A stretch of DNA of 64,000 nt from Patescibacteria group bacterium (GTDB lineage Bacteria > Patescibacteriota > Patescibacteriia > UBA9934 > GWF2-40-263). Every line of letters starts with the position of its first letter. Position 1 is the first letter of the stretch. The DNA lies in the NCBI GenBank assembly GCA_004297215.1, contig SCUM01000001.1, forward strand, positions 289,181 to 353,180, in the 5' to 3' direction. This document shows positions 33,890-49,068 of the stretch, piece by piece. A model generated the notes under the pieces. The model did not search any database. It was not told the origin of the DNA and saw nothing but the letters and a program-made list of their open reading frames with translations. A program made the translations under genes and the position numbers.

Positions 33890-36800
33890 TCATGGTTGCC
33901 GCTTGCGTCGGACCGGACCCTTCGCGGTCGGGAGCTCGAACCAGAACAGGCTGCCCTTCCCCTCCGTCGACAAGAACCCGATGCTCCCCCCGTGCTGCTC
34001 CACGAAATACTTGGCGATGGAAAGCCCGAGCCCCGAGGCGTTTGGCAGCATGGAGGAGGCGTTGCTCGCGCGGTAGAACCGGGTGAAGATGCGCGACTGT
34101 TCCGCCTCCGGGATGCCGATGCCCTCGTCCTCGACTTCGAACCGGACGCGGTTCCCGACCGCGGAAAGGCGCACGGCGACGCGTCCGCCTTTCTTGGAGT
34201 ACGCGATCGCGTTCTCCATGAGCTTCCCCGCGGCCTCCCGGATCTTCTCCGGATCCGCCTCCACGGCCTCGGCGGCCTCCTTGGCGGCCTCGTACGAGCA
34301 ATCGATGCCCTTCGCCCGGCAGCGCGGCTTCCATTCGGTAAGCACGCTGGACACGACGCTCGTGAGCGACAGGCGCTCGCGCGCGAAGGTCACGCGCCCC
34401 TCCTCGATGTCGGTGGCCACGAGCAGGTCGCCGATGCGGCGGATCACCTCGACCTCCGCGCCGTGCGTGATCTCCAGGAGCTGCCGCTGCCGCGCATGCA
34501 GCTTCCCCGCGCGTCCCTCCATGAGCGCCTCGAGGTTCCATCGCACCGCGTTGAGCGGCGTGCGCAGCTGGTGGGCGACGATGCGGATGAAGCTGTTCTT
34601 GAGCTCGTTCAACTCGCGGAGCTTCTCCTCGGAACGGAACCGCTCCGTGACGTCGCGGAAGATCCCCAGGTTGCGGTTGCCGCCCAGGTTGATGATGCGC
34701 ACGTCGGCGATCAGCTCGGTGCCGTCCTTGCGCATGACCGAGGCGTCCATGCCGTTGCGCCCCTCGCGGATGAGGGTGAGCAGGAAGGCGAGCTTCTCCT
34801 CCTCGGTAAGCCGGTGGTCCATGAGGTCGCGCAGCGACATCCCGCGCAATTCCTCCTCGTCGTAGCCGAGCATCGAGCGGGCGGCGGGGTTGGCGTCCAC
34901 GATGCGCCCGTTGTCCGCCATCACGAACACCCCGTCGATGGACTGCTCGATGTAGGAGCGGTACCGCTTCTCGCTCTCCGTGAGCCGTTCCTGCGTCTGC
35001 CGCTCTTCCGTGACATCGAACGCCATGCCCCCCACAAGCCGCACGCCCGCGTCGTTTATGATGGGGAACTTCATCACCTGGAAGGTACGGGGCTTGCCGG
35101 CGATCGTCACCTGCTCGACCGCGTTGAACGGCGCTCCGCTCTCCAGCACCTTCCGGTCGCCTTGCAGCGATGTCTCCGCGACCTTCTTCCCCAGGAGCTT
35201 CGCGACCGTGCGTCCCTGGATTTCCTTCCATGGGCGTCCAAGCGTGCGCCGCAGCGCGGCGTTGCCGTACACGTAGCGCCCGGCGGCGTCCGTCATCCAT
35301 GCGGGGGACGGGTGCATGTCCATGAACAGCTGGAACCGTTGCCGCGCGCGGTCGAGCGCGGTCTCGGCGTGCGCGCGCGCCGCCTTGTTGAGGGAGAAGG
35401 CGTACCCGACCGCGATGTCGTCGGCAAGCTCCTCGAACAGCTTCAGGTCCTCCGCGTGGAACGCGGCGGCGGCCTCCGAGGCGAGGATGAACGCCCCGAA
35501 CGGCTTGCCGTCCATCTTGAGCGGGAAGGCGGCGAGCGACGCGGCTCCGGCGAGGACGAGCTCCGGCGGGAATCCGGAGGCCCGGCCTCCCTCATGCGCG
35601 AGCACGCTTACGCCCTCGCGAAGCGCGCGCGCGACCGGATGCGCCGCGGCGGCCTTCCCCGGCGGGAGCAAGACGGAAGAAGCGACGTCGATGCCGGCGG
35701 CGGCGGCCACGCGCGGCGCGCGGCGCGGCGGCGCGACCACGATCCACGCGCCCAGGAACCCGGCGACGTCCACGCCCACGCGGCACGCCTCCTCGAAGAG
35801 GTCCTGCACGTCCTGCATGCGGAACAGCGCGCGGTTCACGCGCGCCGCCATCTCGCGCCGGCGCGCGAGCTGTTGGATGAGCCGGTCGCGCTCCGTCAGC
35901 CCGTTGACATGGCCTTCCATCGCCTTGGCGGTCGCGTTGAACGCCTCGGCGAGCGCGCGCATCTCGTTGTGCGCCTTCGGCACGTCCAGGCGCGCGCGAT
36001 ACTCCCCGCCTCGCAGGCGGGAAAACCCGTCCGCGAGGGCGCGGATGGGGTCGATGAGCAGGCGGCGGAACGCGTAGAGGGAGAGCGCGAGCGCGGCGAG
36101 GCCGAGCGCGGCGAGCAAGAGGAACGCGAAGGAGAACCTCCGATCGATGTCCGCGAGCACCCTCTCTTCGTCTATGCCGACCGAGGCGTACAGCCGCGCG
36201 TCGTGGGTCTCGCCGACCGGGGCGAACTGGAACGTCCTGCGCTTCCCGTCGAGTCCGGTCGCGCGCACCGACCCCCGCTCCCCGCCCAGCATGGCCTGCG
36301 CGAGCGCCGTCGCGGACGCGTCCATGCCCATGTAGCGCTCCGGCTCCGGGTACCGCGTCACGACCGTGCCGCCGCGGTCCACCTCGAGGAACGCCATCCC
36401 GTCGGGCAGCCCGATGTCGGCGGCCAGCTCGTTGAGCCAATCGAGGTCGAGCGCGATGAACACGACCTGCCGCACGTCCCCCGACGCGTCAAGCACCGGG
36501 TAGGCGGCGTTCAGGGCCCGGCGTCCCGTGATGCGACCGACTTGATAGGAGCCGACGGCGAACCGCTTCGTGGCCACGGCCTGCTTGAACCAATCCCGGT
36601 CCGCGGAACTCGTTTTCTCGACAAGCGGGAGCGCGCTGCAGGTGATGATGCCGTCCGCGCCGACCACCCCGATGTTGGCGAAATTCGGGGTCTCGGTCCT
36701 GATACGGGCCAACGCCAGGCCGCAGGCGGCCGGGTCGTCGCCTGTGACCGTGGAATCCTGGGCGAGCGTGAACAGGTTCTGCCGCGTGGAATCCAACAGG

Positions 36801-37003
36801 GCGTCCTGCTGCGCGACGAACGCCGTCAACAGCCGGCGGGACTGCCCGTGCACGGCCTCGATGCGGTGGGAGCGCTCCGATAACCCGATGCCGACCATGA
36901 TGGCCGCGGCCGGGAGGAATACGATAAGCAGCGCCAACACCGCCCGGGCGCGCAGGGATGCGAATCGCAAAAAACGCGAATGGCGGTGCTCCTCCTTTGG
37001 CAT
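33890..37003 (-). CDS. Large sensor histidine kinase: periplasmic sensor domain, HAMP, GAF, two PAS, HisKA and HATPase_c
   Basis: Start MPKEEH at 37003 (AGGAGGA SD). HisKA H-box RIVAHQLRTPLNAV. G2 box GLGLSIAKYFVEQHGGSI. No receiver domain. Confidence 0.8.
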   Translation of the reverse strand: MPKEEHRHSRFLRFASLRARAVLALLIVFLPAAAIMVGIGLSERSHRIEAVHGQSRRLLTAFVAQQDALLDSTRQNLFTLAQDSTVTGDDPAACGLALARIRTETPNFANIGVVGADGIITCSALPLVEKTSSADRDWFKQAVATKRFAVGSYQVGRITGRRALNAAYPVLDASGDVRQVVFIALDLDWLNELAADIGLPDGMAFLEVDRGGTVVTRYPEPERYMGMDASATALAQAMLGGERGSVRATGLDGKRRTFQFAPVGETHDARLYASVGIDEERVLADIDRRFSFAFLLLAALGLAALALSLYAFRRLLIDPIRALADGFSRLRGGEYRARLDVPKAHNEMRALAEAFNATAKAMEGHVNGLTERDRLIQQLARRREMAARVNRALFRMQDVQDLFEEACRVGVDVAGFLGAWIVVAPPRRAPRVAAAAGIDVASSVLLPPGKAAAAHPVARALREGVSVLAHEGGRASGFPPELVLAGAASLAAFPLKMDGKPFGAFILASEAAAAFHAEDLKLFEELADDIAVGYAFSLNKAARAHAETALDRARQRFQLFMDMHPSPAWMTDAAGRYVYGNAALRRTLGRPWKEIQGRTVAKLLGKKVAETSLQGDRKVLESGAPFNAVEQVTIAGKPRTFQVMKFPIINDAGVRLVGGMAFDVTEERQTQERLTESEKRYRSYIEQSIDGVFVMADNGRIVDANPAARSMLGYDEEELRGMSLRDLMDHRLTEEEKLAFLLTLIREGRNGMDASVMRKDGTELIADVRIINLGGNRNLGIFRDVTERFRSEEKLRELNELKNSFIRIVAHQLRTPLNAVRWNLEALMEGRAGKLHARQRQLLEITHGAEVEVIRRIGDLLVATDIEEGRVTFARERLSLTSVVSSVLTEWKPRCRAKGIDCSYEAAKEAAEAVEADPEKIREAAGKLMENAIAYSKKGGRVAVRLSAVGNRVRFEVEDEGIGIPEAEQSRIFTRFYRASNASSMLPNASGLGLSIAKYFVEQHGGSIGFLSTEGKGSLFWFELPTAKGPVRRKRQP

Positions 37004-37175
37004 GGCTTCAAGTATACCGCATCCCGCGTCCGGGTTCATATCGCGGTGCACACCGCCCGTCGGAAGGAGCGGGCCTACTGCAACCTCCTCCCCTCGGGTA
37101 TACTTGTGGATAACCGACCTGCCTAAGCAGGTCGTCCCAAGGCCGAAGGCCGAAGGATCCTAACCATCGCTTCGT

Positions 37176-37361
37176 ATGTGCGGAGGCTCGTGCGCGTGCG
37201 CCCATCACAAGGTGGGCCCCTTGCTCATCGCCCTGATCGGGCTCCTGTTCCTGCTCAAGACGCTGGGCGTCGTGGGCGCGGCCACCGTGGACCTGGCCTG
37301 GCCGGTGGCGCTCATCGTGATCGGGCTCATGAAGAGCGGGATGTGCAAGTGCTGTAAATGA
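37176..37361 (+). CDS. Small Cys-rich membrane protein (61 aa; N-terminal CGGSCAC, C-terminal CKCCK)
   Basis: ORF flanked by short direct repeats (GGCCGAA...GAAGGATCC on both sides) and followed by a terminator. No clear SD. Confidence 0.3.
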   Translation: MCGGSCACAHHKVGPLLIALIGLLFLLKTLGVVGAATVDLAWPVALIVIGLMKSGMCKCCK

Positions 37362-37434
37362 TTTCGGCCCTAGGCCGAAATCATCCTGAAGCCCATCAGG
37401 GCTGAAGGATCCCGTGAATCGTTTGAATCGAAAG

Positions 37435-37464
37435 ACCGGCCACGCGGCCGGTCTTCGTTTTCTC
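37435..37464 (+). terminator. Rho-independent terminator
   Basis: AGACCGGCC-ACGC-GGCCGGTCT followed by TCGTTTTCT. Confidence 0.6.
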
Positions 37465-37473
37465 GCCGTAAAT

Positions 37474-37869
37474 TCACGCCTTGATCCGAAACCACTCCGA
37501 AACGGTCTTGGGCCAGCCGTATGCCTGCAACAGCGCGAGCGGGGCTCCCCAGTTGGCAAAACGCTCGACGAAGTCCCACACGGGCTCGCCCACGAGCGGG
37601 CGCACGAGCGCGGTCCAGAACCCCCAGATCGCCGCCCACAGGAGCACCGCGCGCGGGACGCCCCGCCACAAAAGCACGGCGGCGGCGACCGCGATGTCCG
37701 ACCATCCGACGAGGGTGAGCAGCGTCGTCGCCGTCGGGGCATTGACCGAAAGGATCTCCTGGATCCAGCCGATCCACTGCGCCTTCCCCTGGACAGCGAA
37801 GACGCCGTGTCCAAGGAATTCGCCGGCGACGGCGATGCGCAGCACCCACTCGAATGTCTTGTTGTTCAT
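37474..37869 (-). CDS. Hypothetical 4-TM membrane protein (DoxX-like size and topology)
   Basis: Start MNNKTFEW at 37869; 131 aa. Last gene of the signalling operon. Confidence 0.45.
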   Translation of the reverse strand: MNNKTFEWVLRIAVAGEFLGHGVFAVQGKAQWIGWIQEILSVNAPTATTLLTLVGWSDIAVAAAVLLWRGVPRAVLLWAAIWGFWTALVRPLVGEPVWDFVERFANWGAPLALLQAYGWPKTVSEWFRIKA

Positions 37870-37910
37870 ACCTTCGTATTGATGATGAGTGAAGTCAGGA
37901 CGGCGTGATT

Positions 37911-38390
37911 TCATCCGTCGGGCGGCTTTGACGGGTTTTCCGGCTCGGCGCGGTCAGGAAACGACGGATCTCCGGGAATCATGAGCGAGAGGCAGGCGGC
38001 GTATCCCTTGTCCATCACGAGGATGTGGGTGGAAAGCCACGACCCTGCGTACTCCGCGATTTCCCTGGCGAACCGGCGGCGGTCATGGACCGTCCCGCGG
38101 ATCTGCGCGATGCGGCGCATCACCTCCTCGCGGAACGAGTTGTGGACGGCCACATGCTTCGCGCCATTCCCGCATTCGGGCAGGAGCAGGTGACGCTCCT
38201 CGGTGGCCAGGTGGAAGTAGGCGTAGTTGGCGAGCGCCATCACGTGCTCCTCCAGGATCTCCGGCGTGGCGTCATCCAGGCCGGCCGTGTCGATGAGCCG
38301 GTTGGCGAGGTCGAAGAACCGCCGATGCTGGCCGTCGATCAGGTCGTTTCCCAGAGCGTACTCGTCCTTCCAGGCGAAATGCTGTCCCAT
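37911..38390 (-). CDS. Bacteriohemerythrin (hemerythrin HHE cation-binding domain)
   Basis: W.DEY..G...ID.QH..F....N N-terminal signature plus downstream His/Glu ligand positions (H..E...H, H....D); 159 aa. Confidence 0.7.
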   Translation of the reverse strand: MGQHFAWKDEYALGNDLIDGQHRRFFDLANRLIDTAGLDDATPEILEEHVMALANYAYFHLATEERHLLLPECGNGAKHVAVHNSFREEVMRRIAQIRGTVHDRRRFAREIAEYAGSWLSTHILVMDKGYAACLSLMIPGDPSFPDRAEPENPSKPPDG

Positions 38391-38399
38391 ACCGCGTGC

Positions 38400-39779
38400 T
38401 TAGGCCGTCGTAACCGGCAGCTCGATCCAAAACGTGCTTCCCTTCCCCTCCTCGCTTTCGAATCCGATCCTGCCCCCGTGTTGTTCCACGAAATACTTGG
38501 AGATGTACAGCCCGAGGCCCGAGGAATCGGGTTTCATGGTGGAGGCGTTCGATGCGCGGAATAAGCGGTTGAACACGCGCGGCTGCTCCACCGCCGGGAT
38601 CCCGATGCCGGTGTCCTTCATGCTGAAGCGGATCGCGCCGTCGCGGTACTCGAGATTCGCGTCCACGCGGCCTTTTTCGGGAGTGTAGGTGACCGCGTTG
38701 TCCATGATCTTGGCGAAGACGTCGCGCAGCTTCTCGCCGTCGCCCTGGAGCGCGGGGAGCGGCGCGCTCGGCGGCGCGTACTCGCAGACGAGGTCCTTGA
38801 GCGTGCAGCGTTTCTTCCACTCGGCCAGCACCCCGTTCCAGATGGTTTCCACGGACACGGTCTCCTTGGAAACGAGGGCGCGCCCCTCCTCGATGTCCAT
38901 GGCCGTGAGCAGGTCGCGGATGCGGGAAATCACGTCGGTGTTGGCGTCGTAGGTGACGCGCAAGAACTCCTTCTGCTCGGCCTTGAGCGGCCCGAGCTGC
39001 TCGTTGAGCAGCGCCTCGATGTTCCAGCGGATGGCGTTGAGCGGGGTGCGGAACTGGTGCGTGACGATGCGGATGAACTTGTCCTTGAGCTGGTCGAGCT
39101 CCCTGATCCTCATCTGGGCCTTCTTCTCCTCGGTGACGTCCTGCACGGTGCCGTCCATTTCCAACGGCGTGCCGTCCTTCCCGTACGACACCTCGGCGCG
39201 CTCGTGCACGACGACGACGCTCCCGTCCGGGCGTACGACGCGATGCTCGATGTCGTACGGCGCATGCCCGCGGATCGACGCGTCGACGGCGCGCTTCACG
39301 AGATCGCGATCCTCGGGATGCACGCGCGCGAGGAACGCGTCGTAGGTGGGCTTGAACTCGCCCGGAGATGTTCCGAACATGCGATAGATCTCATCGGTCC
39401 ACGCGAGCGTCCCCGTAGGCACGTCCCATCGCCACGCCCCGATGTGCGCGAGGCGCTCGGCGTTTTGTAGCATCAGGTTGGTAGTCGTCGAATCCTTCTG
39501 GGACGCGAGCGCGTCGTCGAGCGCGTTGAGCATCGCAGTCCGCGCGTCCTGGAGTTCCTTCGTCTTGAGACGGAGCTTTTCGGCCTCCTCGGAAAGCCGT
39601 TTTTCGCGCTCGCGCCCTTCACGCGAGGAAATCTCGAGCGAACGATCCATGAGCGCGCGGTCCTCGTCAGCGCCCTCGTACGAACGGCTGACGGCCTCAA
39701 GCAACGGCCGGCATTCTTCCGGCACGGTCTCCAAGGTCCCGAAGGCCTTGCGCAGCTGTCGCTCGAGCAGCGGATGCAT
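38400..39779 (-). CDS. Cytoplasmic PAS-domain sensor histidine kinase
   Basis: Coiled-coil N-terminus, a PAS domain, HisKA H-box THQFRTPLNAIRWNIEAL, and HATPase_c G2 box GLGLYISKYFVEQHGGRI. Confidence 0.85.
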   Translation of the reverse strand: MHPLLERQLRKAFGTLETVPEECRPLLEAVSRSYEGADEDRALMDRSLEISSREGREREKRLSEEAEKLRLKTKELQDARTAMLNALDDALASQKDSTTTNLMLQNAERLAHIGAWRWDVPTGTLAWTDEIYRMFGTSPGEFKPTYDAFLARVHPEDRDLVKRAVDASIRGHAPYDIEHRVVRPDGSVVVVHERAEVSYGKDGTPLEMDGTVQDVTEEKKAQMRIRELDQLKDKFIRIVTHQFRTPLNAIRWNIEALLNEQLGPLKAEQKEFLRVTYDANTDVISRIRDLLTAMDIEEGRALVSKETVSVETIWNGVLAEWKKRCTLKDLVCEYAPPSAPLPALQGDGEKLRDVFAKIMDNAVTYTPEKGRVDANLEYRDGAIRFSMKDTGIGIPAVEQPRVFNRLFRASNASTMKPDSSGLGLYISKYFVEQHGGRIGFESEEGKGSTFWIELPVTTA

Positions 39780-39786
39780 ACGGCCT

Positions 39787-40932
39787 TCAGGCCTCGCGCA
39801 GCGTGGTGACGGTCATGGTCTGATTGTGCAGCCGGCACTGCTTCTCGGTCGCCGCCGAGGGCGAAATCTCGCCGTAAGAGTAGAACCCGCAGCTGGCGGC
39901 CTGCTCCCCGACCGCCGCGCGCACGGCCTCTATCTCCTCCTCCACGCGCTCCTTGAGCACGAGCTTGCGGCCCACGCAGCTCACGAGCACCGCAAGCTCG
40001 GCCTGCCCGTTGTCCAATCCTTCGATCCCCATCTTTCCCGCTCCGGATGCGCCGTCCACCAACCGGTCGAAATTCGCCTTCATGAGCCGCGCCAGCGCCC
40101 CTTGTGGCATGTCCCCGGCAAAGGTAAGGCTCTGCGCCTTCTCGTCGACGGCCAACAGCGTGCGCGTCACTTCTTCTTCTTCTTCTTCTTCTTTGAGCCG
40201 CACCTGCAGCGGGAAGAGCAATCCGCTCCCGGGCAGGTCCTTGGCCTTGTCCCCGAGATATTCCTTGTACAAGGCGAGCGCGGGCTTGCCGTCGATCTCG
40301 TAGAGCACGTTCCCTTCCGAACGCGTGATCACGCGCTCGGGCCCGAACGGGTCCCAGCCGCCCAGCGACCCGTGGCCCACGCGCAGCTGCGCGCCGTACA
40401 ACCCCACGAGCACGATCTGTCCCTCCGTTGCCGGGGCATCGAGCCCCACCAGCGTCTTCTTGAAATCCGCCCCGTCGCCCGAAAGCCCGCCTGTGACGGC
40501 CACGCCCTTGGGAAGCGCGCCGGCGAGCCCGCGCACGAGCCGCGTGCCGTTCACGCGCAATCCGTCGGAAAACACCATGGCGTGGACCAACCCCTCGTGC
40601 GGGAGGCACTGGCCGAGCTTGCGCCCCACTTCCTCGCTTTGCGCCGCATCCGAGATGGATTCCGCGCACGCGCGCACGGAGGAAGAGCGGAACCGCACGG
40701 CCGTGACCGAGAGCGACCCGTCGAGCACCTGCGCGCCGTGGATCTCCCCGGCCGTGGAGCAGCTCACGACATGCGCGTCCGGGTACATCGCCTTGAGTTC
40801 GGGATAGGTCGCGCTGTCCTCGAGCTTGGCGCGCGCGCCGAAGGCGAGCACGAGGTGCGCGCTTCCGGAAAGCTTCCCGGTGGCCGGTTTCCATCCGGTT
40901 TCCGCGGTCCACTGTTTCTGTTCTATCTCCAT
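39787..40932 (-). CDS. FIST-domain sensory protein (FIST_N plus FIST_C)
   Basis: 381 aa. The C-terminal GFYSYGEISP motif is typical of FIST_C. Also has an internal EEEEEEE tract. Confidence 0.55.
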   Translation of the reverse strand: MEIEQKQWTAETGWKPATGKLSGSAHLVLAFGARAKLEDSATYPELKAMYPDAHVVSCSTAGEIHGAQVLDGSLSVTAVRFRSSSVRACAESISDAAQSEEVGRKLGQCLPHEGLVHAMVFSDGLRVNGTRLVRGLAGALPKGVAVTGGLSGDGADFKKTLVGLDAPATEGQIVLVGLYGAQLRVGHGSLGGWDPFGPERVITRSEGNVLYEIDGKPALALYKEYLGDKAKDLPGSGLLFPLQVRLKEEEEEEEVTRTLLAVDEKAQSLTFAGDMPQGALARLMKANFDRLVDGASGAGKMGIEGLDNGQAELAVLVSCVGRKLVLKERVEEEIEAVRAAVGEQAASCGFYSYGEISPSAATEKQCRLHNQTMTVTTLREA

Positions 40933-40946
40933 ACGTCCCGTGGGAA

Positions 40947-42662
40947 TCAGGCGCCGGGCTTATCGCCGGTCGTCGCGTGTGGCGTCGCCGTGCCTGGCGA
41001 GGCATCCGCGCCCTCGGCCTGCGCCAGCCGCTTCTTGAGCTCGGCCATGCGCAGCTCGCGGCCCACCAAGTGCGCGTTCACGCGCTCGAGCTCGCGTTTT
41101 TCCGCTTCCAGCTCGCGGACGCGGTCGGCGACTTCCTTTTCCAGGCGTTGTGCGTACGAGCGCTGTTCCTCGGCGAGCCGCTTTTGCTGCGTCACGTCCT
41201 CGAGGATGAGCAGCGCCTCAAGCGCCTTGCGCCCGGCAAGCGGCGTGCCCGTGAGACGGAACGCCCGCCCGTCCGCTCCGGGAATCTCCCGCTCGAAGGG
41301 CGCTCCGGCGAGCGCGCCGCGCAGCTCCCCTTCGAGCGCGCGTTCCCGGCACCAGGCCGAGGCAAGCAGGCCGTCGCCTTCCATGACCCCGGTCCATTCC
41401 TTCGCGCGGGCGTTCGCGGACGCGACCGTCCCGTCGGCGGCGACCGTGATGATCCCCACCGGCGCCTGGGTGAACACGGCCTCGTAGAGCTGGTTGAGGC
41501 TGCCGAAATACTCGTCCAGGCGCTCGGCCATGGCGTTGACCCCCTGCGCGGCCTGGCCGATCTCGTCACGCTTGATGTCGGCGGCCGGCACGCGCGCGCC
41601 GAACTTCCCTTGCGCGAGCTCCTTGATGACCGCCGTGCACGCGCCCACGCGCCGGCCCATCACCACGCTCAACCCCACGCCCAACGAGGCCGAGAACGCC
41701 AAGGTGACGAACAGCACGAGCGCGTTCTGCGCGCGCGCCGCGCGCGCGGCCGCGTCCACTTCGGTCGTGTCGATTTCCGAGACGAGCGTCCACCATCTGC
41801 CCGCCTGGCAGCGCGAGGCGCCGATCACGGGCACACCGCGGTAGTCGATCCACTCTCCGGACGCGGATTCGCCGGCCTCGCGACATCGTCGCACCGGCTC
41901 GGTGTCGACCTTGACCTTGAGCACCACATCCGGGACGAAACGCGACGGAGTGACGAAATGGCCGTCCGCGTTCACCAGATAGGTCTCGAAGGTCGACTCG
42001 GGACGATCGGAAAGGATCTCTCCCAACAGCGCGGTGAGGTCGCGCGCCGAGACATGCAGCACGAGCACGCCGCCCGGCGTGCCTGCCTCCTTGGCGAGCG
42101 GGGCGGAAAAATGCAGGGTCGGCTCGGAGGGGTGTCCTTGCTCGTCACCCTCGAGGACGACGAAGCCGTTTGTCACGGTCTCCACGAACGAGGCGGCCAT
42201 GGCCCGGCGCCAGGCGTATTCGTATTCCAATTCCTCGGCGCTCTCGCTGTGTCCCACCCGCAGCGGCTCGGACGAGGCCACCACGCGCCCGTCGGCGTCG
42301 AACACTTCGGCAATCAGGATGGAACGATCGAGCGGCATCTTGAAGTCGCGCAAATACGCGCCGAGCTCGCGCGAGGCCTCCTGCGCCTCCGGGCTCTCCC
42401 TCGGCAGCGCGGCGATACGCGCGATCAGGGCGTTGATATGCCCGTCCGACGACCAATCGGACGCGCGCTTGGCGAGCCCGTCGAGGTACAGCGTGACGGA
42501 ACGCTCGGCAAGCTCCGCCGTGACGGCCACGTGCTCCGCGAACTTGTCCTCCACGCCCTGCCGGATGGTCCCCAGGCTCACGCCGAACACCACGAGGAGC
42601 GGGACGACCCCCGAAAGCACGAAGGCGAGGACGAGCTTGGAGCGGATGCGCATGGGACGCAA
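40947..42662 (-). CDS. Membrane sensor protein: periplasmic domain, TM, HAMP, PAS and a C-terminal coiled coil, with no catalytic output domain
   Basis: N-terminal TM LVLAFVLSGVVPLLVVFGV. HAMP-like IKELAQGKFGARVPAA...AQGVNAMAERL. PAS segment. Terminal heptads ELEAEKRELERVNAHL. Confidence 0.55.
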   Translation of the reverse strand: MRPMRIRSKLVLAFVLSGVVPLLVVFGVSLGTIRQGVEDKFAEHVAVTAELAERSVTLYLDGLAKRASDWSSDGHINALIARIAALPRESPEAQEASRELGAYLRDFKMPLDRSILIAEVFDADGRVVASSEPLRVGHSESAEELEYEYAWRRAMAASFVETVTNGFVVLEGDEQGHPSEPTLHFSAPLAKEAGTPGGVLVLHVSARDLTALLGEILSDRPESTFETYLVNADGHFVTPSRFVPDVVLKVKVDTEPVRRCREAGESASGEWIDYRGVPVIGASRCQAGRWWTLVSEIDTTEVDAAARAARAQNALVLFVTLAFSASLGVGLSVVMGRRVGACTAVIKELAQGKFGARVPAADIKRDEIGQAAQGVNAMAERLDEYFGSLNQLYEAVFTQAPVGIITVAADGTVASANARAKEWTGVMEGDGLLASAWCRERALEGELRGALAGAPFEREIPGADGRAFRLTGTPLAGRKALEALLILEDVTQQKRLAEEQRSYAQRLEKEVADRVRELEAEKRELERVNAHLVGRELRMAELKKRLAQAEGADASPGTATPHATTGDKPGA

Positions 42663-42705: not shown

Positions 42706-43542
42706 TCAAGAAACGTACACCCTCCGCGACGGCGGGATCGAGGCAATCGCCCGCTCGATGAGCGGCGCGACGGAAACTTGGGAAACCCACGCGGCGGGCG
42801 GACGCGTCGCGACCGTGTCCGTCACGATGATCTCGCGCACGCCCAGGCCGTGCAGCCTCTTCCAGGCCTCTCCGGCGAACAGCCCGTGCGTGACGCAAAT
42901 CAGGAGTTCCTTGGCGCCGGCGCGGCGCAGGCGTTCGCAGGCCGCGACCAGCGTGGAGCCCGTGTCGAGCTGGTCGTCCACGAGCACGCACCGGTTCCCC
43001 ACCGCGCCGACGGGCGCGCCGACCCGGACGCCGCGCGCGGTCCGCGCCTTCTCGAACCGCGTGACGGGACGCTTGTCCTTGAGCGCCCTGGCAACCGCCT
43101 CGCACCGCGCGACGGCGCCGTTGTCCGGAGCGACCAGCGTGGCGTCCTCCCATCCTCGGTCCAGGATCTCCTTCGCGAAAACCGGCGCGGGCGAGAGGGA
43201 AACGATCGGCACGGGGACCAGTTCCCTGTCCCGCAGGCTGTGCAGGTCCACGGTCACGATCCGACCGATGCCGGAGGCGCGGATGAGCTCCCCCAGCCAG
43301 GCGGTCGTGAGGCCAAGCCCCGGCTTCGCCTTGTCCTGGCGCATGTATGCCATGAACGGGATGACGGCCACCACCCGACCAGCCCCTTCCTTCTTGAGCG
43401 TATGCGCGGCAAGGAGCGTCTTAAGCAGGTTCTCGTCCGGAGGAGAAAAAGATCCGAACAGGGCGACCGTTCCGGAGAGCGTCGGGCATCCGGGAAGGTA
43501 CAGCTCCCCGTTCTCATAGCGGCGGAAGGCAAGCGTCGTCAT
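42706..43542 (-). CDS. prs: Ribose-phosphate pyrophosphokinase-like protein (divergent Prs)
   Basis: PFMAYMRQDK (compare Prs PYFGYARQDR) and the PRPP-binding loop VLVDDQLDTGSTL; 278 aa. Confidence 0.65.
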   Translation of the reverse strand: MTTLAFRRYENGELYLPGCPTLSGTVALFGSFSPPDENLLKTLLAAHTLKKEGAGRVVAVIPFMAYMRQDKAKPGLGLTTAWLGELIRASGIGRIVTVDLHSLRDRELVPVPIVSLSPAPVFAKEILDRGWEDATLVAPDNGAVARCEAVARALKDKRPVTRFEKARTARGVRVGAPVGAVGNRCVLVDDQLDTGSTLVAACERLRRAGAKELLICVTHGLFAGEAWKRLHGLGVREIIVTDTVATRPPAAWVSQVSVAPLIERAIASIPPSRRVYVS

Positions 43543-44168
43543 ACTTGTTTCATCATGGCGACCACCTCTTCGTCGCTCACCTGGTCGAACGCCTCGTAAT
43601 AATTGCCGATGGACCCGAGGAACATCGCCGGCTCGTGCAAGACGACGACCTCGTCAACCTCCTTCCCAAGCTCGCGCAGCGTATCGCGCGCCGCCACCGG
43701 GACCGCGATCACGACGGAAGACGGTTCGCGCGTCCGAAGCTCCGACAACGCCGCCTTCATGGTGAGCCCGGTCGCGATCCCGTCGTCGACCACGATGGCG
43801 GCCTTGCCCTTCACGGGGACGGCCGGTCTCCCGGAGAGGTATCGCTCGCGCCGTCGGCGGGCTTCCTCGCGTTGCCGTCGGACTTCCTCGTCGAACCATT
43901 TCGGATCCGCGGACCGGACTTCGTCCTCCTGACGCACGACGGCGCCCGTTTCCGTCACGGAGGCGATGGCGTATTCGGGGTTGTCCGGATGGCCGATCTT
44001 GCGTGGGATGAGCAGGTCGAGCGGGGCCTTGAGGGCCTTTGCGACCGCGACGCCCAGCACCACGCCCCCGCGCGGCAGGGCGTACACGACGACGGGCTTG
44101 CCGGCATAGGGCCGGAGCGCGTCGACGAGCTGCCGTGCCGCGTCCGCGCGATCCTTGAATCGGGGCAT
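43539..44168 (-). CDS. Phosphoribosyltransferase-family protein (PRTase type I fold, about 209 aa)
   Basis: Start MPRFKDRADAARQL at 44168. PRPP-binding motif AAIVVDDGIATGLTM. Overlaps the prs start by 4 nt. Confidence 0.65.
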   Translation of the reverse strand: MPRFKDRADAARQLVDALRPYAGKPVVVYALPRGGVVLGVAVAKALKAPLDLLIPRKIGHPDNPEYAIASVTETGAVVRQEDEVRSADPKWFDEEVRRQREEARRRRERYLSGRPAVPVKGKAAIVVDDGIATGLTMKAALSELRTREPSSVVIAVPVAARDTLRELGKEVDEVVVLHEPAMFLGSIGNYYEAFDQVSDEEVVAMMKQV

Positions 44169-44179
44169 AGGTCGATACC

Positions 44180-47100
44180 CTATTGGCCCGAAGCGGCAGG
44201 GGCAGATCGGACGAACGCGTTCAGGGCCGCCCTCGTAAGCGGTCCGACCAGGCCGATGGGCGGGATGTTCTTCAATGCCTGAAACGCGGCGACGGCGCGC
44301 TGGGTGATCGGTCCATAGGTGCCGGAGGCGGACACGTCTTCTGGGAAATGCTTGAGGCACCGAAGGATCTCCTGCAGTCGTACGACCGCGTCACCGACGT
44401 TCCCAGGGCCGAGGTTCGAGGTGAACGGCGAGGACAGGACGCAGGCGGAGGCCACCGGCTCGGGGGCCCTAGCCTCGACGCACATGGCCGGATCGTCCTT
44501 CGCGTTGATCGTGCGGATGCTCCCCGCGGCCTCGTGGGTGTCGTTCCAGACCACCCGATCGAGCTTCGGCTCCCCGCGCAAGGACACCTGGAGCGCCAGG
44601 CGGTGGTGCCAGGCGGCGTCCAGTTCGAGCAGTTCGAACGTGACGGCGGAACAGTCGCGTGTATCGACTAGGACGCGGACGTCGTTGTAGTCGAAATCCC
44701 GTCCGGAATCCTCGAACCCGACGATGGTCCTGCCGTCGGCGGCGGGCGTCACGCGGACGTACGGCGTCCCCATATGCCGTTCGGTCCCGTCCGGGTTCAC
44801 GATGTACAGGTCGTACCCGACCTCGTCGCACGCGACCTCGCACGGCGCTGGCAGAGCGTCCGCAGCGGGGACGGACGGAGGAGGCTCGACGTCGGTCGTG
44901 GGCGGAAGCGGCGGGAGGACGCCGGCAGGATCGACGTAGGGTTCTTCCACGTCCTCGACGATCGGAAGGATCGCCCCGACGACGTACGCGCCGTCCTCGT
45001 TGGCGTCGATGAGCGCGTACTGGCCGATGCCAAGATGCGAATCCGGCCAGATGAGCAGGTCACTCACGAGCGCTCCCGCGTTGGACAAGGCGATGCGCAC
45101 GTTGTGGAGCCACCCGGCGTCCACCGCGAGCACGGTCACCACGATCCTGGTCCAGTCCGAGTAGTCCACCCGGATCACGACGTCGTCGAAGTCGAAGTCC
45201 GATCCCTTGTCCTCGAACCGGATGATGTCCACGGTGTCGCTCACGCGCTCGACGCGCGCGTACCGCGGGTCGGTCATGTGGCGCTCGGTCCCGTCGGGAT
45301 TCACGATGTAGATGTCGTAGGACGCGGCGGAGAAGTCGACGTCCGGCGGGGCGGGTTGCGACGGCACGGGTTCGGTCACGGGGCTCGGCGGCGGAAGTTC
45401 GCTCGTCGTCTCCGGCGCGGACGGTTCCGGGGAGGTCGTCGTCCCGGTGTCGGATCCGGGATTGCTCGGAGGGTTCACGACGATGCTCCCTCCCCCGCTG
45501 CGCCGGGTGATTGAGAAGGAGATGTCCGTGGCGTCCGCAGCGGCATACGTCCCGTCGGCGTCGATGTCCGCATCGATGGTGCAGGTGCCAGCCGCGACGA
45601 ACGTGACGATGCCGGTGGTCGAGCCGATGGTGCACACTCCGGTCGTGGTGCTCGTGTACGTCTTGGTACCGGCTCCAGCGGAAGCGGTGGACGTGATGGT
45701 CGGCTCCGCTTCGGTGATCAGGTAACTCGACTCGTACGAGCCCGCGTCGATGGTGAGCGTGCGGGCGGCGAGGGTCACGCTGAAGGAGATGTCCGTGGCG
45801 TCGGCCGTGTCATAGGTGCCGTCGGCGTCGATGTCCGCATCGATGGTGCAGGTGCCGGCGGACACGAACGTGACGATCCCCGTGGTGGAACCGATGGTGC
45901 ACACGCCGGTCGTGGTGCTCGTGTACGTCTTGGTACCGGCTCCAGCGGAAGCGGTGGACGTGATGGTCGGAGGCGTGTCCGTGAGCTCGTAGCTGGCGAC
46001 GTACGAGCCCGCGTCGATGGTGAGCGTGCGGGCGGCGAGGGTCACGCTGAAGGAGATGTCCGTGGCGTCGGCCGCGTCGTAGGTGCCGTCGGCGTCGATG
46101 TCGGCGTCGATGGTGCAGGTGCCGGCCGCGACGAAGGTGACGATACCTGTGGTGGAACCGATGGTGCAGACGCCGGTCGTGGTGCTCGTGTAGCTCTTCG
46201 TCCCCGTTCCGGCGGAGGCGGTCGACGTGATGGTGGGCGGGGTGTCCGTGAGCGAATAGCTGGAGACGTACGAGCCTGCGTCGATCGTGAGCGTGCGGGC
46301 GGCCAAGGTGACCGAGAACGAAATGTCCGTCGCGTCGGCCGTGTCATAGGTGCCGTCGGCGTCGATGTCGGCGTCGATGGTGCAGGTGCCGGCCGCGACG
46401 AAGGTGACGATGCCGGTCGTTGATCCGATTGTACAGACGCCTGTGGTCGTGCTCGTGTACGTCTTCGTTCCCGTCCCGGCGGAGGCGGTCGACGTGATGG
46501 TCGGGGGCGTGTCCGTCATGGAGTAACTGGCCACGTACGAGCCCGCGTCGATGGTGAGAGTGCGGGCGGCCAGCGTCACCGAGAACGAGATGTCCGTCGC
46601 GTCGGCCGTGTCATAGGTGCCGTCGCTCGCGATGTCGGCATCGATCGTGCAGGTGCCGGCCGCGACGAAGGTGACGATGCCGGTGGTCGAGCCGATGGTG
46701 CACACGCCAGTCGTGGTACTCGTGTACGTCTTGGTGCCGGCTCCAGCGGAAGCGGTGGACGTAATCGTCGGCGGCGTGTCCGTGAGCGTGTAGCTCGCGA
46801 CGTACGAGCCGGCGTCGATGGTGAGGGTACGGGACGCCAGGCTCGTGGTGAAGTTCAGGATGGATCCTTCGAACGCGGTCGTGCAAGAGACGTTCGGATA
46901 CGTGCCGGTGAGCGCGCTCGTGCACGCGCGGATCTTGAAATAATAGGTGATCCCGGAGGTGAGGCCGGTCACGGCATAGCTGAACGGCTGGGTGGACGAC
47001 CCGCCGGCCGTGAGCGCGGCCGTGCCGGTGCCGTCGTCGACGGTGACGGTCGTCGTCCCGGAAGAAAGATCCGAGACGGTGCCGTACACGAACTGGATGC

Positions 47101-48970
47101 CGGTGATCGGGGTCAGGTTCGGGTTGATAGTGCCGTTCACCGTCGCCGTAGTCGCGGCCACGCTCGTCGCGGCGGTCGTGGTGGGGGTCGGGTCCGCGAG
47201 CACCGCAAGCGTGGTGAACGACAGGATGGTCCCCTGGGCCGATCCCGCCTTCACGCGATAATAGTAGGTCGTGCCGGACGAGAGGCCAGTGAGGCCGAGG
47301 CTGACCGCCGTCGGGTCCGTGAGCCCGTCGAGCGTGCCGGAGGCCGGCGTGGTCGCGGTCGTGGTCGTCGCCCCGACCAAGGTCGGGCTGGTGCCATACT
47401 CGAACTGGCCGGTGAGCACCGCCGTGCCGTTGGGGTCCACCGTGCCGTTGAGCGTCGCGGCGGAGGCGGTGATACTCGTGGCCGGATCCGTGACTGCCGA
47501 GATGCTGAAATCCGCCGTATCGGCGACGACCCCGACCGTGCTGGTGCCTGTGGAGGTGACCGTAATCCTCGACATCGCTGACGCCGTCGCTCCCACGAGG
47601 AAATCGCCGATCTTGGCGTATGCGGTGTTCGCGAAGCTGCCCACCGGCACCCACATCTCGTAGTCGATGCTCGCGGTCGTGCCGGAATTGAGCGTGAACG
47701 GGCCGGTGAAATGCAGCGGCTTGGGGGCCGCGTCCGCGGTGACGGTCACAGGGTCGCCGATCGCGACCCCGGTGCGGCCGATGTCGGTGACGGTCGCGCT
47801 TCCCGGAATGAAGATGGGGCCGGTTGGCGCTTGGTCCACGAACTCGTCCACCGTGAGCGTGGTGGCCGTCGTCGAAGAGGCGGTGAGGCGGTACGGGACC
47901 TCCACGTACGTCTCGCCGCTGCCGCTTTCCCCGGGAACCGCGCACGCGCCCGTGCAGTCCACGACCGTGAGCCCGGTGGTGGTCGTGACGCTCTTGGTAA
48001 GCGCCGCGTTGATGGTGAGCGAGGCGAACGAGATGTCGAGGGTGCCGCCCGCGGCGCCGGTGTCGGAGTGCTTCACCTGGGTGCCGCTCGCGATCTGGGC
48101 GATCGGCACGGCCGTGACCGTGCTCGTTGGGCGCCCCACCACGCGGAAGCCGTAGGAGATGCGGTATTCGGAGTTGTCGACGTTGGTGAGGCCGTTCGCC
48201 CCCGTGATGAGCAGCTGGTTCGCGTAGGTCACCTGGTCGGCGGTGTTGGCCCAGTTGGCGTTGCCGTCGAAGGTGATGGACACGCTTTCAAGGCGCAGCG
48301 CCCGCGTGGGCCAGGTGGACACGGCCGCGGGCGCGAGCCAGATGATGTCGAAATCCGGGGTGGAACCCGCGCCGATCTGCCCGGTCTGGCCCTCGACCGT
48401 GATCGTGACCAGCTGCCCGAGCTCCGGCGAGGTGTCCGAGACCTCGATCGCCGCGGCGCTCGTGAGCCCGTTGTCCGCGAGCTTGTTGGAGGCCGCCTTG
48501 ATGGTCTCCTGCACCTTGGAGAACGAGAAGTCGCATTCGTACAGCACCGTGGCGCCCGCAAGGTCGGGGCGGTCGTCGTACACCTTGAGCGTGTGCCCCT
48601 GCGCCGACATGGTGGCGCCGGTCGCCTTCAGCATGAAGTAGGAGGTGCCGGTCGAGCCATCGGCGAGCGTCGGGAGTTGCATGGCGCTGTCCAGCGCGTT
48701 CGCGAGCGACACGTTGGACCCCGTGAAGGAACTCACCTGCGCCCACAGGCTCGATTGCGAGGATCCCGTCCCGTTGGTCACCCGGTAACCGATGTAGCCC
48801 GCGTCGAGCACCGGCGTGACGCCCGTGTCGATGTAAAACACGTTCCCATGGCTCGGGACCACCGTGATGCCGTTTTGCGCCGCCGCGCCCGAGGAGCAGG
48901 TGACGGCGGAGACGTCGTGGACGTTCGCGAACAGGGACGCGAACGCGGCAAAGACGATGATGCCGCACAT
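44180..48970 (-). CDS. Giant cell-surface protein (~1596 aa): signal peptide, FN3/Ig-like modules, five tandem ~88-aa repeats, two DUF4114-like modules, and a C-terminal peptidoglycan-binding domain
   Basis: Signal peptide MCGIIVFAAFASLFANVHDVSA. FN3-like ...SGTTYYYRVKAGS. Five copies of LAARTLTIDAGSYVASY..TDTPPTITSTASAG.GTKTYTSTTTGVCTIGSTTGIVTFVAAGTCTIDADI..DGTYD.ADATDISFSVT. Two copies of YD(I/L)YIVNPDGTERHM...FED(K/S)G(S/R)DFD(F/Y)(D/N)DV. PG-binding GNVGDAVVRLQEILRCLKHFP...GTYGPITQRAVAAFQ. Confidence 0.8.
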   Translation of the reverse strand: MCGIIVFAAFASLFANVHDVSAVTCSSGAAAQNGITVVPSHGNVFYIDTGVTPVLDAGYIGYRVTNGTGSSQSSLWAQVSSFTGSNVSLANALDSAMQLPTLADGSTGTSYFMLKATGATMSAQGHTLKVYDDRPDLAGATVLYECDFSFSKVQETIKAASNKLADNGLTSAAAIEVSDTSPELGQLVTITVEGQTGQIGAGSTPDFDIIWLAPAAVSTWPTRALRLESVSITFDGNANWANTADQVTYANQLLITGANGLTNVDNSEYRISYGFRVVGRPTSTVTAVPIAQIASGTQVKHSDTGAAGGTLDISFASLTINAALTKSVTTTTGLTVVDCTGACAVPGESGSGETYVEVPYRLTASSTTATTLTVDEFVDQAPTGPIFIPGSATVTDIGRTGVAIGDPVTVTADAAPKPLHFTGPFTLNSGTTASIDYEMWVPVGSFANTAYAKIGDFLVGATASAMSRITVTSTGTSTVGVVADTADFSISAVTDPATSITASAATLNGTVDPNGTAVLTGQFEYGTSPTLVGATTTTATTPASGTLDGLTDPTAVSLGLTGLSSGTTYYYRVKAGSAQGTILSFTTLAVLADPTPTTTAATSVAATTATVNGTINPNLTPITGIQFVYGTVSDLSSGTTTVTVDDGTGTAALTAGGSSTQPFSYAVTGLTSGITYYFKIRACTSALTGTYPNVSCTTAFEGSILNFTTSLASRTLTIDAGSYVASYTLTDTPPTITSTASAGAGTKTYTSTTTGVCTIGSTTGIVTFVAAGTCTIDADIASDGTYDTADATDISFSVTLAARTLTIDAGSYVASYSMTDTPPTITSTASAGTGTKTYTSTTTGVCTIGSTTGIVTFVAAGTCTIDADIDADGTYDTADATDISFSVTLAARTLTIDAGSYVSSYSLTDTPPTITSTASAGTGTKSYTSTTTGVCTIGSTTGIVTFVAAGTCTIDADIDADGTYDAADATDISFSVTLAARTLTIDAGSYVASYELTDTPPTITSTASAGAGTKTYTSTTTGVCTIGSTTGIVTFVSAGTCTIDADIDADGTYDTADATDISFSVTLAARTLTIDAGSYESSYLITEAEPTITSTASAGAGTKTYTSTTTGVCTIGSTTGIVTFVAAGTCTIDADIDADGTYAAADATDISFSITRRSGGGSIVVNPPSNPGSDTGTTTSPEPSAPETTSELPPPSPVTEPVPSQPAPPDVDFSAASYDIYIVNPDGTERHMTDPRYARVERVSDTVDIIRFEDKGSDFDFDDVVIRVDYSDWTRIVVTVLAVDAGWLHNVRIALSNAGALVSDLLIWPDSHLGIGQYALIDANEDGAYVVGAILPIVEDVEEPYVDPAGVLPPLPPTTDVEPPPSVPAADALPAPCEVACDEVGYDLYIVNPDGTERHMGTPYVRVTPAADGRTIVGFEDSGRDFDYNDVRVLVDTRDCSAVTFELLELDAAWHHRLALQVSLRGEPKLDRVVWNDTHEAAGSIRTINAKDDPAMCVEARAPEPVASACVLSSPFTSNLGPGNVGDAVVRLQEILRCLKHFPEDVSASGTYGPITQRAVAAFQALKNIPPIGLVGPLTRAALNAFVRSAPAASGQ
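45495..46850. repeat. Five tandem ~265-bp DNA repeats encoding the 88-aa protein repeats of the giant surface protein
   Basis: Near-identical blocks beginning (minus-strand sense) around 46850, 46590, 46323, 46055, 45790 and 45522. Confidence 0.75.
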
Positions 48971-49068
48971 CCCGATCGCCTTGCCCGCCGAAAACGAGCC
49001 GATTTGACATCGCATATATTGACCCTATCCTACCATGTTCCAATGGAACAGGAGGCGTCCCGTCTCGC

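Follow-up and report, generated by a model that had tools for sequence, protein, structure and literature searches.

Five open reading frames (ORFs), all on the minus strand, were confirmed at positions 37474-42662 of the window, the 64-kb stretch of a Patescibacteria (CPR) MAG analyzed here. An earlier note had placed five co-directional minus-strand genes there, and the ORFs lie where it put them; NCBI gene calls TAK03854-TAK03856 agree with three of the five. The genes are spaced by 14, 7, 9, and − 4 nt in order from the sensor gene to the DoxX-like gene, and not by the 8-40 nt given before. The domain assignments of the earlier note (HAMP, PAS, FIST, kinase, and hemerythrin) were borne out by the Pfam/HMM check. 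A terminator scan and the sequence revealed a palindromic, GC-rich hairpin of 10 bp (7 G-C) at 37432-37455, 18 nt past the last stop codon of the operon; it is a probable bidirectional terminator closing the operon. A membrane kinase gene (33890-37051, minus strand; dCache-HAMP-GAF-PAS-PAS-HisKA-HATPase by Pfam) lies about 420 nt away with this hairpin between, and is therefore probably its own transcription unit. Its transmitter core is 52% identical to that of the kinase in the operon, with DHp helix 1 nearly the same and, judged by this similarity, is a paralogue of it.

The first gene of the operon (40947-42662, minus strand) encodes a transmembrane sensor. Its translation contains TM1 (approximately residues 9-31), an extracytoplasmic Cache-like domain of approximately 280 residues, and TM2 (approximately residues 313-335), followed by HAMP, PAS, and a coiled coil; the true start is likely the ATG at residue 4. 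HAMP (27.2 bits, cutoff 25) and PAS_4 (25.2 bits, cutoff 23.1) passed the Pfam cutoffs, and dCache_1 (PF02743) reached 23.8 bits versus a cutoff of 45 in a region flanked by the two hydrophobic segments. dCache_1 is on the precomputed Pfam record for the proteins encoded upstream of FIST in three related loci (L004 and L092/L093). Pfam detected no kinase, cyclase, or other output domain in the sensor, in agreement with its previous description as a HAMP-PAS sensor without output.

The second gene (39787-40932, minus strand) encodes a stand-alone FIST_N + FIST_C protein of 381 aa resembling NosP-type accessory sensors. Pfam matched FIST (PF08495, 158.7 bits) and FIST_C (PF10442, 118.9 bits) and no further domain. 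FIST domains had been called little characterized, which is out of date, since NosP is a FIST protein. The NCBIfam NosP model NF041558 aligned to residues 26-356, an alignment described as full length, with 51.8 bits (E = 6.6e-14) versus an equivalog cutoff of 450. The protein thus belongs to a FIST subfamily other than NosP, and heme/NO binding is not confidently transferable to it; even for NosP, a review describes the binding mechanism as poorly known (PMC8846402). Relatives that are 51-61% identical occur across many phyla, including CPR, Proteobacteria, Bacteroidota, and Archaea. Conservation in at least 98% of 86 sequences was seen for C319, H369, D153, E212, D214, R200, R257, R322, and E355, among other residues; H117 and C366 are conserved in 90-98%. 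The Cys and His residues among them (C319, H369, H117, and C366) are compatible with a cofactor or metal site. The best PDB match of the AF2 model (pLDDT 92.6) is the FIST domain of FBXO22, followed by the Toblerone-fold enzymes cyanuric acid hydrolase and barbiturase.

The third gene (38400-39779, minus strand) encodes a cytoplasmic histidine kinase, the partner of the FIST protein, with an N-terminal module, a long helix, PAS_3, HisKA, and HATPase_c in this order. Its H, N, G1, and G2 boxes are intact (H241, N361, D389xG391, and G421, conserved in the alignment), and the AF2 model (pLDDT 91.1) shows a short helix (3-13) and a continuous helix (21-111) running into the PAS domain. The N-terminal module of approximately 65 residues (39585-39779, minus strand; MHPLLERQLRKAFG...YEGADEDRALMDRSLEISS), designated as Nmod, is helical and has the consensus MHxLLxRQLKR…DxDRxLLERSLELSS; no Pfam or NCBIfam model matches it. 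Of 85 related loci, drawn from many phyla, 82 have Nmod at the start of the ORF directly after FIST, and the outputs behind it vary (kinase, hybrid kinase, GGDEF/EAL, SpoIIE, or none). A search of 1.84 billion representatives gave 1266 matches; in all of the best 150, Nmod begins at residues 1-23, and 79 of these 150 are at least about 250 aa long, 66 of which contain HATPase_c. Nmod is absent from the partners of more distant FIST subfamilies. In nearly all of 62 loci, the distance from the FIST stop codon to the start of the next ORF is between − 14 and + 16 nt. In lineages as far apart as CPR, Proteobacteria, and Archaea, FIST and kinase therefore form a near-universal, translationally coupled gene pair. 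The conserved core consists of FIST and the next gene only, and the rest of the operon lies outside it. We propose from this synteny that Nmod is the docking site of the FIST protein.

Residues 505-555 of the sensor (40998-41150, minus strand; ELERVNAHLVGRELRMAELKKRL) form a basic coiled-coil motif at its C-terminal end, with the consensus GRELRMxELKK and no match in Pfam. In the closest relatives (L004, L005, L092/L093, and L094), the gene immediately upstream of FIST encodes a protein ending in this motif. The motif is invariant across the sensors of the window, L004, and L005, whose whole sequences are just 28% identical; the invariance of the C-terminal 30 residues is thus a sign of selection on this end of the sensor. 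It also ends output-less Nmod-(PAS) proteins encoded directly downstream of FIST in four further loci (L002, L008, L012, and L017), and such a protein in L037 matched more weakly (E about 0.004). A profile search with the motif found 182 proteins, which are mostly short and belong to several phyla. We propose, on the strength of this conservation, that the sensor's real output is this motif, acting as a docking helix. A candidate partner is an acidic helix in the stalk of the kinase (residues 70-96; 39492-39572, minus strand; KELQDARTAMLNALDDA; consensus ALLNxLED). All seven loci that encode a protein with the basic motif have this acidic motif, and none of the 75 loci that lack such a protein does (Fisher p = 5e-7; the seven represent only approximately two independent lineages).

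The fourth gene (37911-38390, minus strand) encodes a single-domain bacteriohemerythrin of 159 aa that scored 47.1 bits with Pfam Hemerythrin and 80.8 bits with TIGR02481 (cutoff 51.75), and 71.7 bits with the subfamily model NF033749, below its cutoff of 84. All seven di-iron ligands are readable in the sequence (H22, H60, E64, H79, H83, H122, and D127). The last gene (37474-37914, minus strand), which overlaps the hemerythrin stop codon by 4 nt, encodes a small membrane protein with approximately four hydrophobic segments. It is labeled DoxX-like only, because DoxX (PF07681) reached 19.3 bits, missing the gathering score of 23.6, and NCBIfam gave no match; phmmer found no homologue in the related loci. 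The hemerythrin had been considered a coupling partner of the FIST and kinase modules. This is not supported by the related loci: a hemerythrin gene right after the kinase occurs in the window only, and the sole other link is a hemerythrin-kinase fusion in L056. In L004, the closest relative, a NirK nitrite reductase gene (316 bits, cutoff 296) directly after the kinase takes the place of the hemerythrin gene, a hint therefore that NO/O2 is the signal, and a cupredoxin gene flanks the FIST cassette in L092/L093. NirK and cupredoxin are known from Kaiserbacteria (PMC5581439). The NO theme as a whole rests on one NirK, two cupredoxins, and two hemerythrin associations among about 90 loci.

Taken together, the operon probably encodes an accessory-sensor/kinase system of the NosP/NosK type in a CPR bacterium, with a third, membrane-bound input. 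Signaling by protein contact between FIST and kinase was already suggested in the earlier note, and this part stands, given the published NosP/NosK(NahK) mechanism (PMC12570481, PMC8846402) and the conserved synteny with Nmod; the part assigned to hemerythrin is not supported. The FIST protein would bind a small ligand, dock on Nmod at the tip of the long helical stalk of the kinase, and alter autophosphorylation of His241. By analogy with NosP, the ligand would most plausibly be heme-NO/O2 or another redox-active species, to which the hemerythrin of the window and the NirK/cupredoxin genes of its nearest relatives lend a little weight. The sensor would pass on an extracytoplasmic signal via its basic C-terminal helix, which may pair with the acidic ALLNxLED segment of the stalk, so that three inputs (from outside, from FIST, and from the kinase's own PAS domain) would converge on a single kinase. 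The acceptor of the phosphoryl group would be a response regulator of the ordinary sort whose gene lies in another part of the 842-kb genome; like its counterparts in other CPR loci, it would probably be a single-domain receiver, and it would probably serve both this kinase and the paralogous neighboring one. The hemerythrin and the DoxX-like protein may be co-transcribed accessory or stress proteins outside the conserved signaling device. A farther-reaching version is speculative, and we consider it rather doubtful: the FIST subfamily would be a universal plug-in sensor for the docking module of whichever signaling protein is encoded next, the basic GRELRMxELKK helix would let output-less sensors of CPR bacteria act in trans on the ALLNxLED segment of kinase stalks, and the products of this locus would form a three-protein, one-kinase sensory complex, linked to the handling of NO/O2 through the hemerythrin of the window and, in the sister lineage, NirK.

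The presumed regulator would lie outside the window, in which a receiver HMM applied to all six frames with filters off detected no receiver domain (best E = 2.3). This absence is real, because the same HMM gave 109 receiver-domain matches in 53 of 85 related loci, and the count of zero receivers reported previously is confirmed. From that count a non-canonical phosphorelay or protein-protein signaling had been suggested; read as a relay without a regulator, it would have hemerythrin, FIST, and kinases act by protein contacts or on a non-receiver target. The examined stretches of the closest relatives (L004, L005, L092, and L094) likewise contain no receiver, and in L004 a run of at least five kinases has no regulator within 14.7 kb, as would suit such a relay. 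We nevertheless regard it as very improbable: the H, N, G1, and G2 boxes of both kinases are canonical, the hemerythrin is not conserved with the cassette, and in relatives the receiver gene adjoins the kinase or is fused to it. Among 46 Nmod-kinases, 32 either are hybrid or are encoded within 4 kb of a receiver gene, and other CPR genomes encode receivers immediately beside the kinase of the FIST cassette. Comparable non-hybrid kinases without a receiver within 4 kb are not rare (14 of 35), orphan kinases are commonplace, and the window covers 8% of the genome (842-kb contig). A regulator missing from the operon is ordinary, and nothing found here favors a non-canonical phosphorelay.

The identity of the ligand leaves more room. 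The FIST protein could be the accessory sensor of the kinase and yet have an ordinary metabolite as its ligand, for instance an amino acid or some other small organic compound, with hemerythrin and NirK being incidental; amino-acid-like ligands were reportedly proposed when FIST was originally described. The low score with the NosP equivalog model, the lack of conservation of the redox neighbors, and the likeness of the FIST model, after FBXO22, to the small-molecule-binding cyanuric acid hydrolase and barbiturase agree with a metabolite, as does the description of the FBXO22 fold as three YjgF-like repeats (10.1101/2024.06.03.594717). We still think this somewhat unlikely, as the conserved Cys and His residues fit a cofactor or metal site, the nosRPK layout is common to the FIST subfamily, and the NirK, cupredoxin, and hemerythrin neighbors cluster in the nearest relatives. 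There is little probability that the sensor is what a decayed kinase gene has left behind or an independent actor with no functional tie to the FIST-kinase pair. It does look like the front half of a typical membrane kinase (Cache-HAMP-PAS) minus the transmitter, and the gene upstream of FIST is heterogeneous across the whole FIST family. However, its ORF is intact and 14 nt from FIST, the gene order is maintained in five related loci, its C-terminal 30 residues are invariant while the remainder is 28% identical, and the same motif terminates FIST-partner proteins in other CPR lineages. We prefer the FIST-kinase system with a membrane-bound third input.

The genomes of CPR bacteria are tiny, and a host-attached life is assumed for these organisms. 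A conserved sensory cassette with several inputs shows which sensing functions they continue to invest in. Should NO/O2 be the signal, the cassette would be a candidate for the control of the NirK/cupredoxin genes that are a puzzle in Kaiserbacteria-like organisms. Nmod offers a concrete candidate docking site for FIST/NosP on partner proteins, the N-terminus of the published NosK being unassigned; a domain model built from it could serve to spot kinases, cyclases, and phosphatases under FIST control across many phyla. The FIST-kinase pair is of a known kind; Nmod and the basic C-terminal helix are two previously undescribed helical motifs around the pair and candidate docking elements.

We compared the operon with known systems. 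The hemerythrin resembles bacteriohemerythrins (TIGR02481/NF033749) in having all seven di-iron ligands and passing the domain-level model, but differs in its score below the NF033749 cutoff and in a Pro-rich C-terminal tail. The FIST domain of human FBXO22 (PDB 8ua6, 8s7e), the best structural match (Foldseek E 1e-10, TM about 0.5), shares the three-repeat fold at 12% sequence identity; there it is the protein-recognition surface of a eukaryotic ubiquitin-ligase substrate receptor, with no ligand pocket reported (10.1101/2024.06.03.594717). H-NOX/HnoK pairs follow the same logic, in which a separate gas sensor beside the kinase controls autophosphorylation (PMC8846402, PMC8738867), although the sensor fold is unrelated to FIST. 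In the NosP-NahK system of Pseudomonas aeruginosa and the NosP systems of Vibrio and Legionella (NF041558; PMC8846402, PMC8738867, PMC11237717), a FIST_N + FIST_C sensor is co-cistronic with a kinase, as in the window, and signals by protein-protein contact, as we propose here. NahK-type kinases are hybrid and feed Hpt proteins, whereas the window kinase is non-hybrid, and the window FIST protein falls outside the NosP subfamily.

In published systems, the neighboring kinase is bound by NosP, which determines how far it autophosphorylates (PMC12570481; reviewed in PMC8846402). The adjoining histidine kinase of NosP operons is found here after a 7-nt gap, and its regulation by the FIST protein is predicted; their response regulator, often with c-di-GMP output, is missing from the window and present in many relatives. 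A close parallel in gene layout and domains is NosP-NosK-NosR of Burkholderia pseudomallei (BPSS1647/1646/1648; PMC12570481), where a stand-alone FIST gene likewise stands beside a soluble kinase gene and NosP binds NosK and sets its autophosphorylation. Compared with nosRPK, the window operon has no regulator gene, its kinase has an extra PAS domain, and an upstream transmembrane sensor and the downstream hemerythrin and DoxX-like genes are added, in a CPR host. NosK has approximately 130 unassigned N-terminal residues, and Proteobacterial loci of the window's FIST subfamily encode REC-HD-GYP, FIST, and an Nmod-kinase free of sensor domains, which is the nosR-nosP-nosK layout.

The stretch had a G+C content of 61-70%, a level rarely seen in CPR genomes, and third-position G+C singled out five co-directional minus-strand genes at 37474-42662. 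The five-gene operon described in the earlier note was confirmed, and its domain calls were upheld by Pfam and NCBIfam. Three of the five gene products were identical to GenBank proteins TAK03854-TAK03856, which belong to a Patescibacteria group bacterium MAG with a contig of 842,311 bp. The first gene (40947-42662) encodes a sensor with two transmembrane segments, HAMP and PAS domains, a sub-threshold dCache_1 match and no catalytic output. It is followed by a FIST protein with strong FIST_N and FIST_C matches (39787-40932), a PAS_3-HisKA-HATPase kinase (38400-39779), a hemerythrin whose seven iron ligands are all present (37911-38390), and a small membrane protein whose Pfam DoxX match was sub-threshold only (37474-37914). 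The intergenic spacings were 14, 7, 9, and -4 nt.

A large kinase with the architecture dCache-HAMP-GAF-PAS-PAS (33890-37051, minus strand) lies approximately 420 nt beyond the operon, probably as a transcription unit of its own. A GC-rich hairpin of 10 bp (37432-37455) is located 3' of the last operon stop. Convergent on the operon is a 61-aa ORF (37176-37361, plus strand), and the hairpin is a possible terminator common to both. The product of this ORF is small, with two transmembrane segments and Cys-rich ends (MCGGSCACAHHK…MKSGMCKCCK), possibly a membrane peptide connected with metals or redox. A sigma-70 promoter scan returned zero sites in the window, a type of scan that is uninformative for a CPR genome. 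On the upstream side, two overlapping phosphoribosyltransferase-type genes (42706-44360, minus strand), one of them PRPP-synthetase-like, stop 43 nt before the sensor gene and may be co-transcribed with it; this pair was missing from the related loci. A 1611-aa ORF (44180-49015, minus strand) with Big-like, DUF4114 and peptidoglycan-binding domains and atypical codon-position G+C probably encodes a giant surface protein. Several high-GC3 ORFs antisense to it (46980-48641, plus strand) had zero Pfam matches.

We compared the operon with related loci from other genomes (85 in the main analysis; the close relatives L092-L094 were added afterwards). The gene upstream of FIST was heterogeneous across the family. 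In all but a few of the 62 loci for which the distance was measured, the gene after FIST began -14 to +16 nt from the FIST stop. The 62 proteins encoded there differed in their further domains, which were HATPase_c (41), HisKA (34), receiver (10), GGDEF (7), EAL (5) and SpoIIE (4). A custom HMM detected an N-terminal module of about 65 residues, designated Nmod (MHxLLxRQLKRxxG…F(L)xAVxxAYxxxDxDRxLLERSLELSSxEL), directly behind FIST in 82 of the 85 loci and also in the window kinase. No model of Nmod was found in Pfam or NCBIfam. A word-index search for homologues of the 70-residue Nmod gave a single match and was replaced by phmmer, run exhaustively against 1.84 billion representatives, which yielded 1266 matches. 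Among the best 150 of these, the module started at residue 1-23 in every case, and HATPase_c was present in 66 of the 79 proteins of at least about 250 aa. Nmod was present in the partner of an Azospirillum FIST homologue (45% identity) and absent from the partners of more distant FIST subfamilies (25-29% identity). In its AF2 model (pLDDT 91.1), the window kinase has a short helix (residues 3-13) and a continuous helix (residues 21-111) running into the PAS domain, which places Nmod at the tip of a long stalk.

Thousands of relatives of the FIST protein at 60-70% identity occur in Kaiserbacteria- and Paceibacteria-like CPR genomes. Relatives at 51-61% identity were found in Planctomycetota, Bacteroidota, Proteobacteria, Acidobacteriota, Verrucomicrobiota, and even Thermoplasmatota and Halobacteriales, a spread suggestive of strong constraint or of frequent transfer. 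AF2 modelled the FIST protein with confidence (pLDDT 92.6); the best structural match of the model was the FIST domain of FBXO22, followed by Toblerone-fold cyclic amide hydrolases, and no bacterial FIST structure was detectable by sequence similarity. A 647-aa partial protein of Myxococcota (P0008) was considered as a FIST-partner fusion, which was rejected because only two FIST units are present, in tandem, of the same subfamily as that of the window and separated by a Pro-rich linker. A 43% identical FIST gene (L086) stands alone on Legionella conjugative plasmids of about 150 kb (e.g. NZ_CP011106.1, 72821-73987), with no Nmod partner behind it and a convergent MFS efflux gene next.

As in the window, a PAS protein lacking an output domain was encoded directly upstream of FIST in the closest relatives (L004, L005, L092/93 and L094), whose FIST proteins are 66-70% identical to that of the window. 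Some of these sensors also have a dCache domain. The sensors of the window, L004 and L005 were 28% identical overall, with the last 30 or so residues invariant (…ELERxNxxL(I/V)GRELRM(A/V)ELKKxL…). The same C-terminal motif ended output-less Nmod-(PAS) proteins encoded directly downstream of FIST in L002, L008, L012 and L017, and more weakly in L037; one such protein consisted of Nmod and the motif only, in 111 aa. This shared, conserved end suggests that the motif itself acts as an output. A profile search with the motif retrieved 182 proteins, mostly short, from several phyla. An acidic helix, ELxxxxxA(L/M)LN(A/V/I)L(E/D)D, was present in the kinases of loci with an upstream motif-bearing sensor (approximately residues 70-96 of the Nmod-kinases) and in the large kinase of L012, near residue 790, which comes after two motif proteins. 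It occurred in 7/7 such loci vs 0/75 loci that lacked a motif protein (Fisher p = 5e-7), although these represent only about two independent lineages. We therefore hold as a hypothesis that the basic motif helix may pair with the acidic kinase helix. BLASTP found no meaningful similarity between the output-less sensor and the neighbouring large kinase, and its origin as a paralogue or truncation of that kinase was rejected.

A receiver HMM run with filters off over all six frames gave zero matches in the window, in agreement with the earlier claim that no receiver domain is present; the same HMM gave 109 receiver-domain matches in the related loci. Nothing in the window or the related loci requires the non-canonical relay proposed on that basis as one possibility. 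Of 46 Nmod-kinases, 11 were hybrid and 21 had a receiver gene within 4 kb (32/46 together), and the 14 without one included the window and its closest relatives. In CPR loci including L001, L006, L009, L011 and L014, the kinase gene is followed immediately by one or two genes for single-domain receivers; no receiver gene was found in the 14.7 kb of L004. It is ordinary for such a kinase to lack a regulator nearby. Between the two kinases of the window, the transmitter cores share 52% identity and DHp helix 1 is almost unchanged, which by the usual specificity-residue logic suggests that both share one regulator. At the phospho-acceptor site both have H-Q-x-R-T (38400-39110 and 33890-34600, minus strand) and not the H-E/D-x-x-T/N phosphatase motif (PMC12570481), hinting that their phosphatase activity may be weak.

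The neighbouring genes bear on the signal. NirK, a copper nitrite reductase (TIGR02376, 316.4 bits vs cutoff 296.3), is encoded directly after the FIST-linked kinase in L004, and the window has hemerythrin, an O2/NO-binding di-iron protein, in that position. A cupredoxin gene lies just upstream of the cassette in L092/93, and one is also near that of L001. The combination of NirK and cupredoxin has been described in Kaiserbacteria and Parcubacteria as an unexplained trait (PMC5581439). Neither nirK nor cupredoxin was found across the window. Together with the analogy to NosP and the conserved FIST residues C319, H369, H117 and C366, these neighbours give a weak indication that the cue is NO, O2 or redox; a serious rival reading is that FIST binds a metabolite. 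Among the related loci, hemerythrin behind the kinase was found only in the window, and the DoxX-like gene had no counterpart. The only other hemerythrin association found was in a gammaproteobacterial locus (L056, 12363-13904), where the FIST/Nmod-kinase pair is immediately followed by a gene that fuses hemerythrin to a histidine kinase. In L004, the closest long relative (GCA_964648865.1, 1-14673), the sensor-FIST-kinase trio and NirK are followed by an uninterrupted series of at least four further PAS kinases.

The pairing of a free-standing FIST protein with a kinase encoded next to it has been published as the NosP/NahK (NosK) arrangement, in which kinase autophosphorylation is set by bound NosP in an NO-dependent manner (PMC12570481; PMC8846402; PMC8738867; PMC11237717). 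The NCBIfam NosP model aligned with the window FIST over its full length at 51.8 bits vs a cutoff of 450, indicating a homologue from another FIST subfamily and not a NosP equivalog. In the proteobacterial loci L044, L056 and L038, which carry the FIST subfamily of the window, the order REC-HD-GYP, FIST, Nmod-kinase (about 365 aa, without a sensor domain) is that of nosR-nosP-nosK in B. pseudomallei, whose NosK has about 130 N-terminal residues described as unassigned (PMC12570481); this comparison was made on gene layout and published description. A CPR cassette of FIST, an Nmod-PAS-CC protein, a membrane kinase and two single receivers (L002, 10001-21149) leads directly into a set of type IV pilus genes (PilB/MshE-like ATPase, PilC, pilin and PilM), which recalls the link of the NosP-domain protein CdpA to the MshE pilus in V. 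cholerae (PMC13654575). New here are the CPR setting; the unannotated Nmod, a proposed docking module that accompanies this FIST subfamily across phyla; and a CPR-specific third component, with a conserved C-terminal helix and a matching acidic helix in the kinase. At its core the operon is of a known type, an accessory sensor of the FIST/NosP kind with its kinase.
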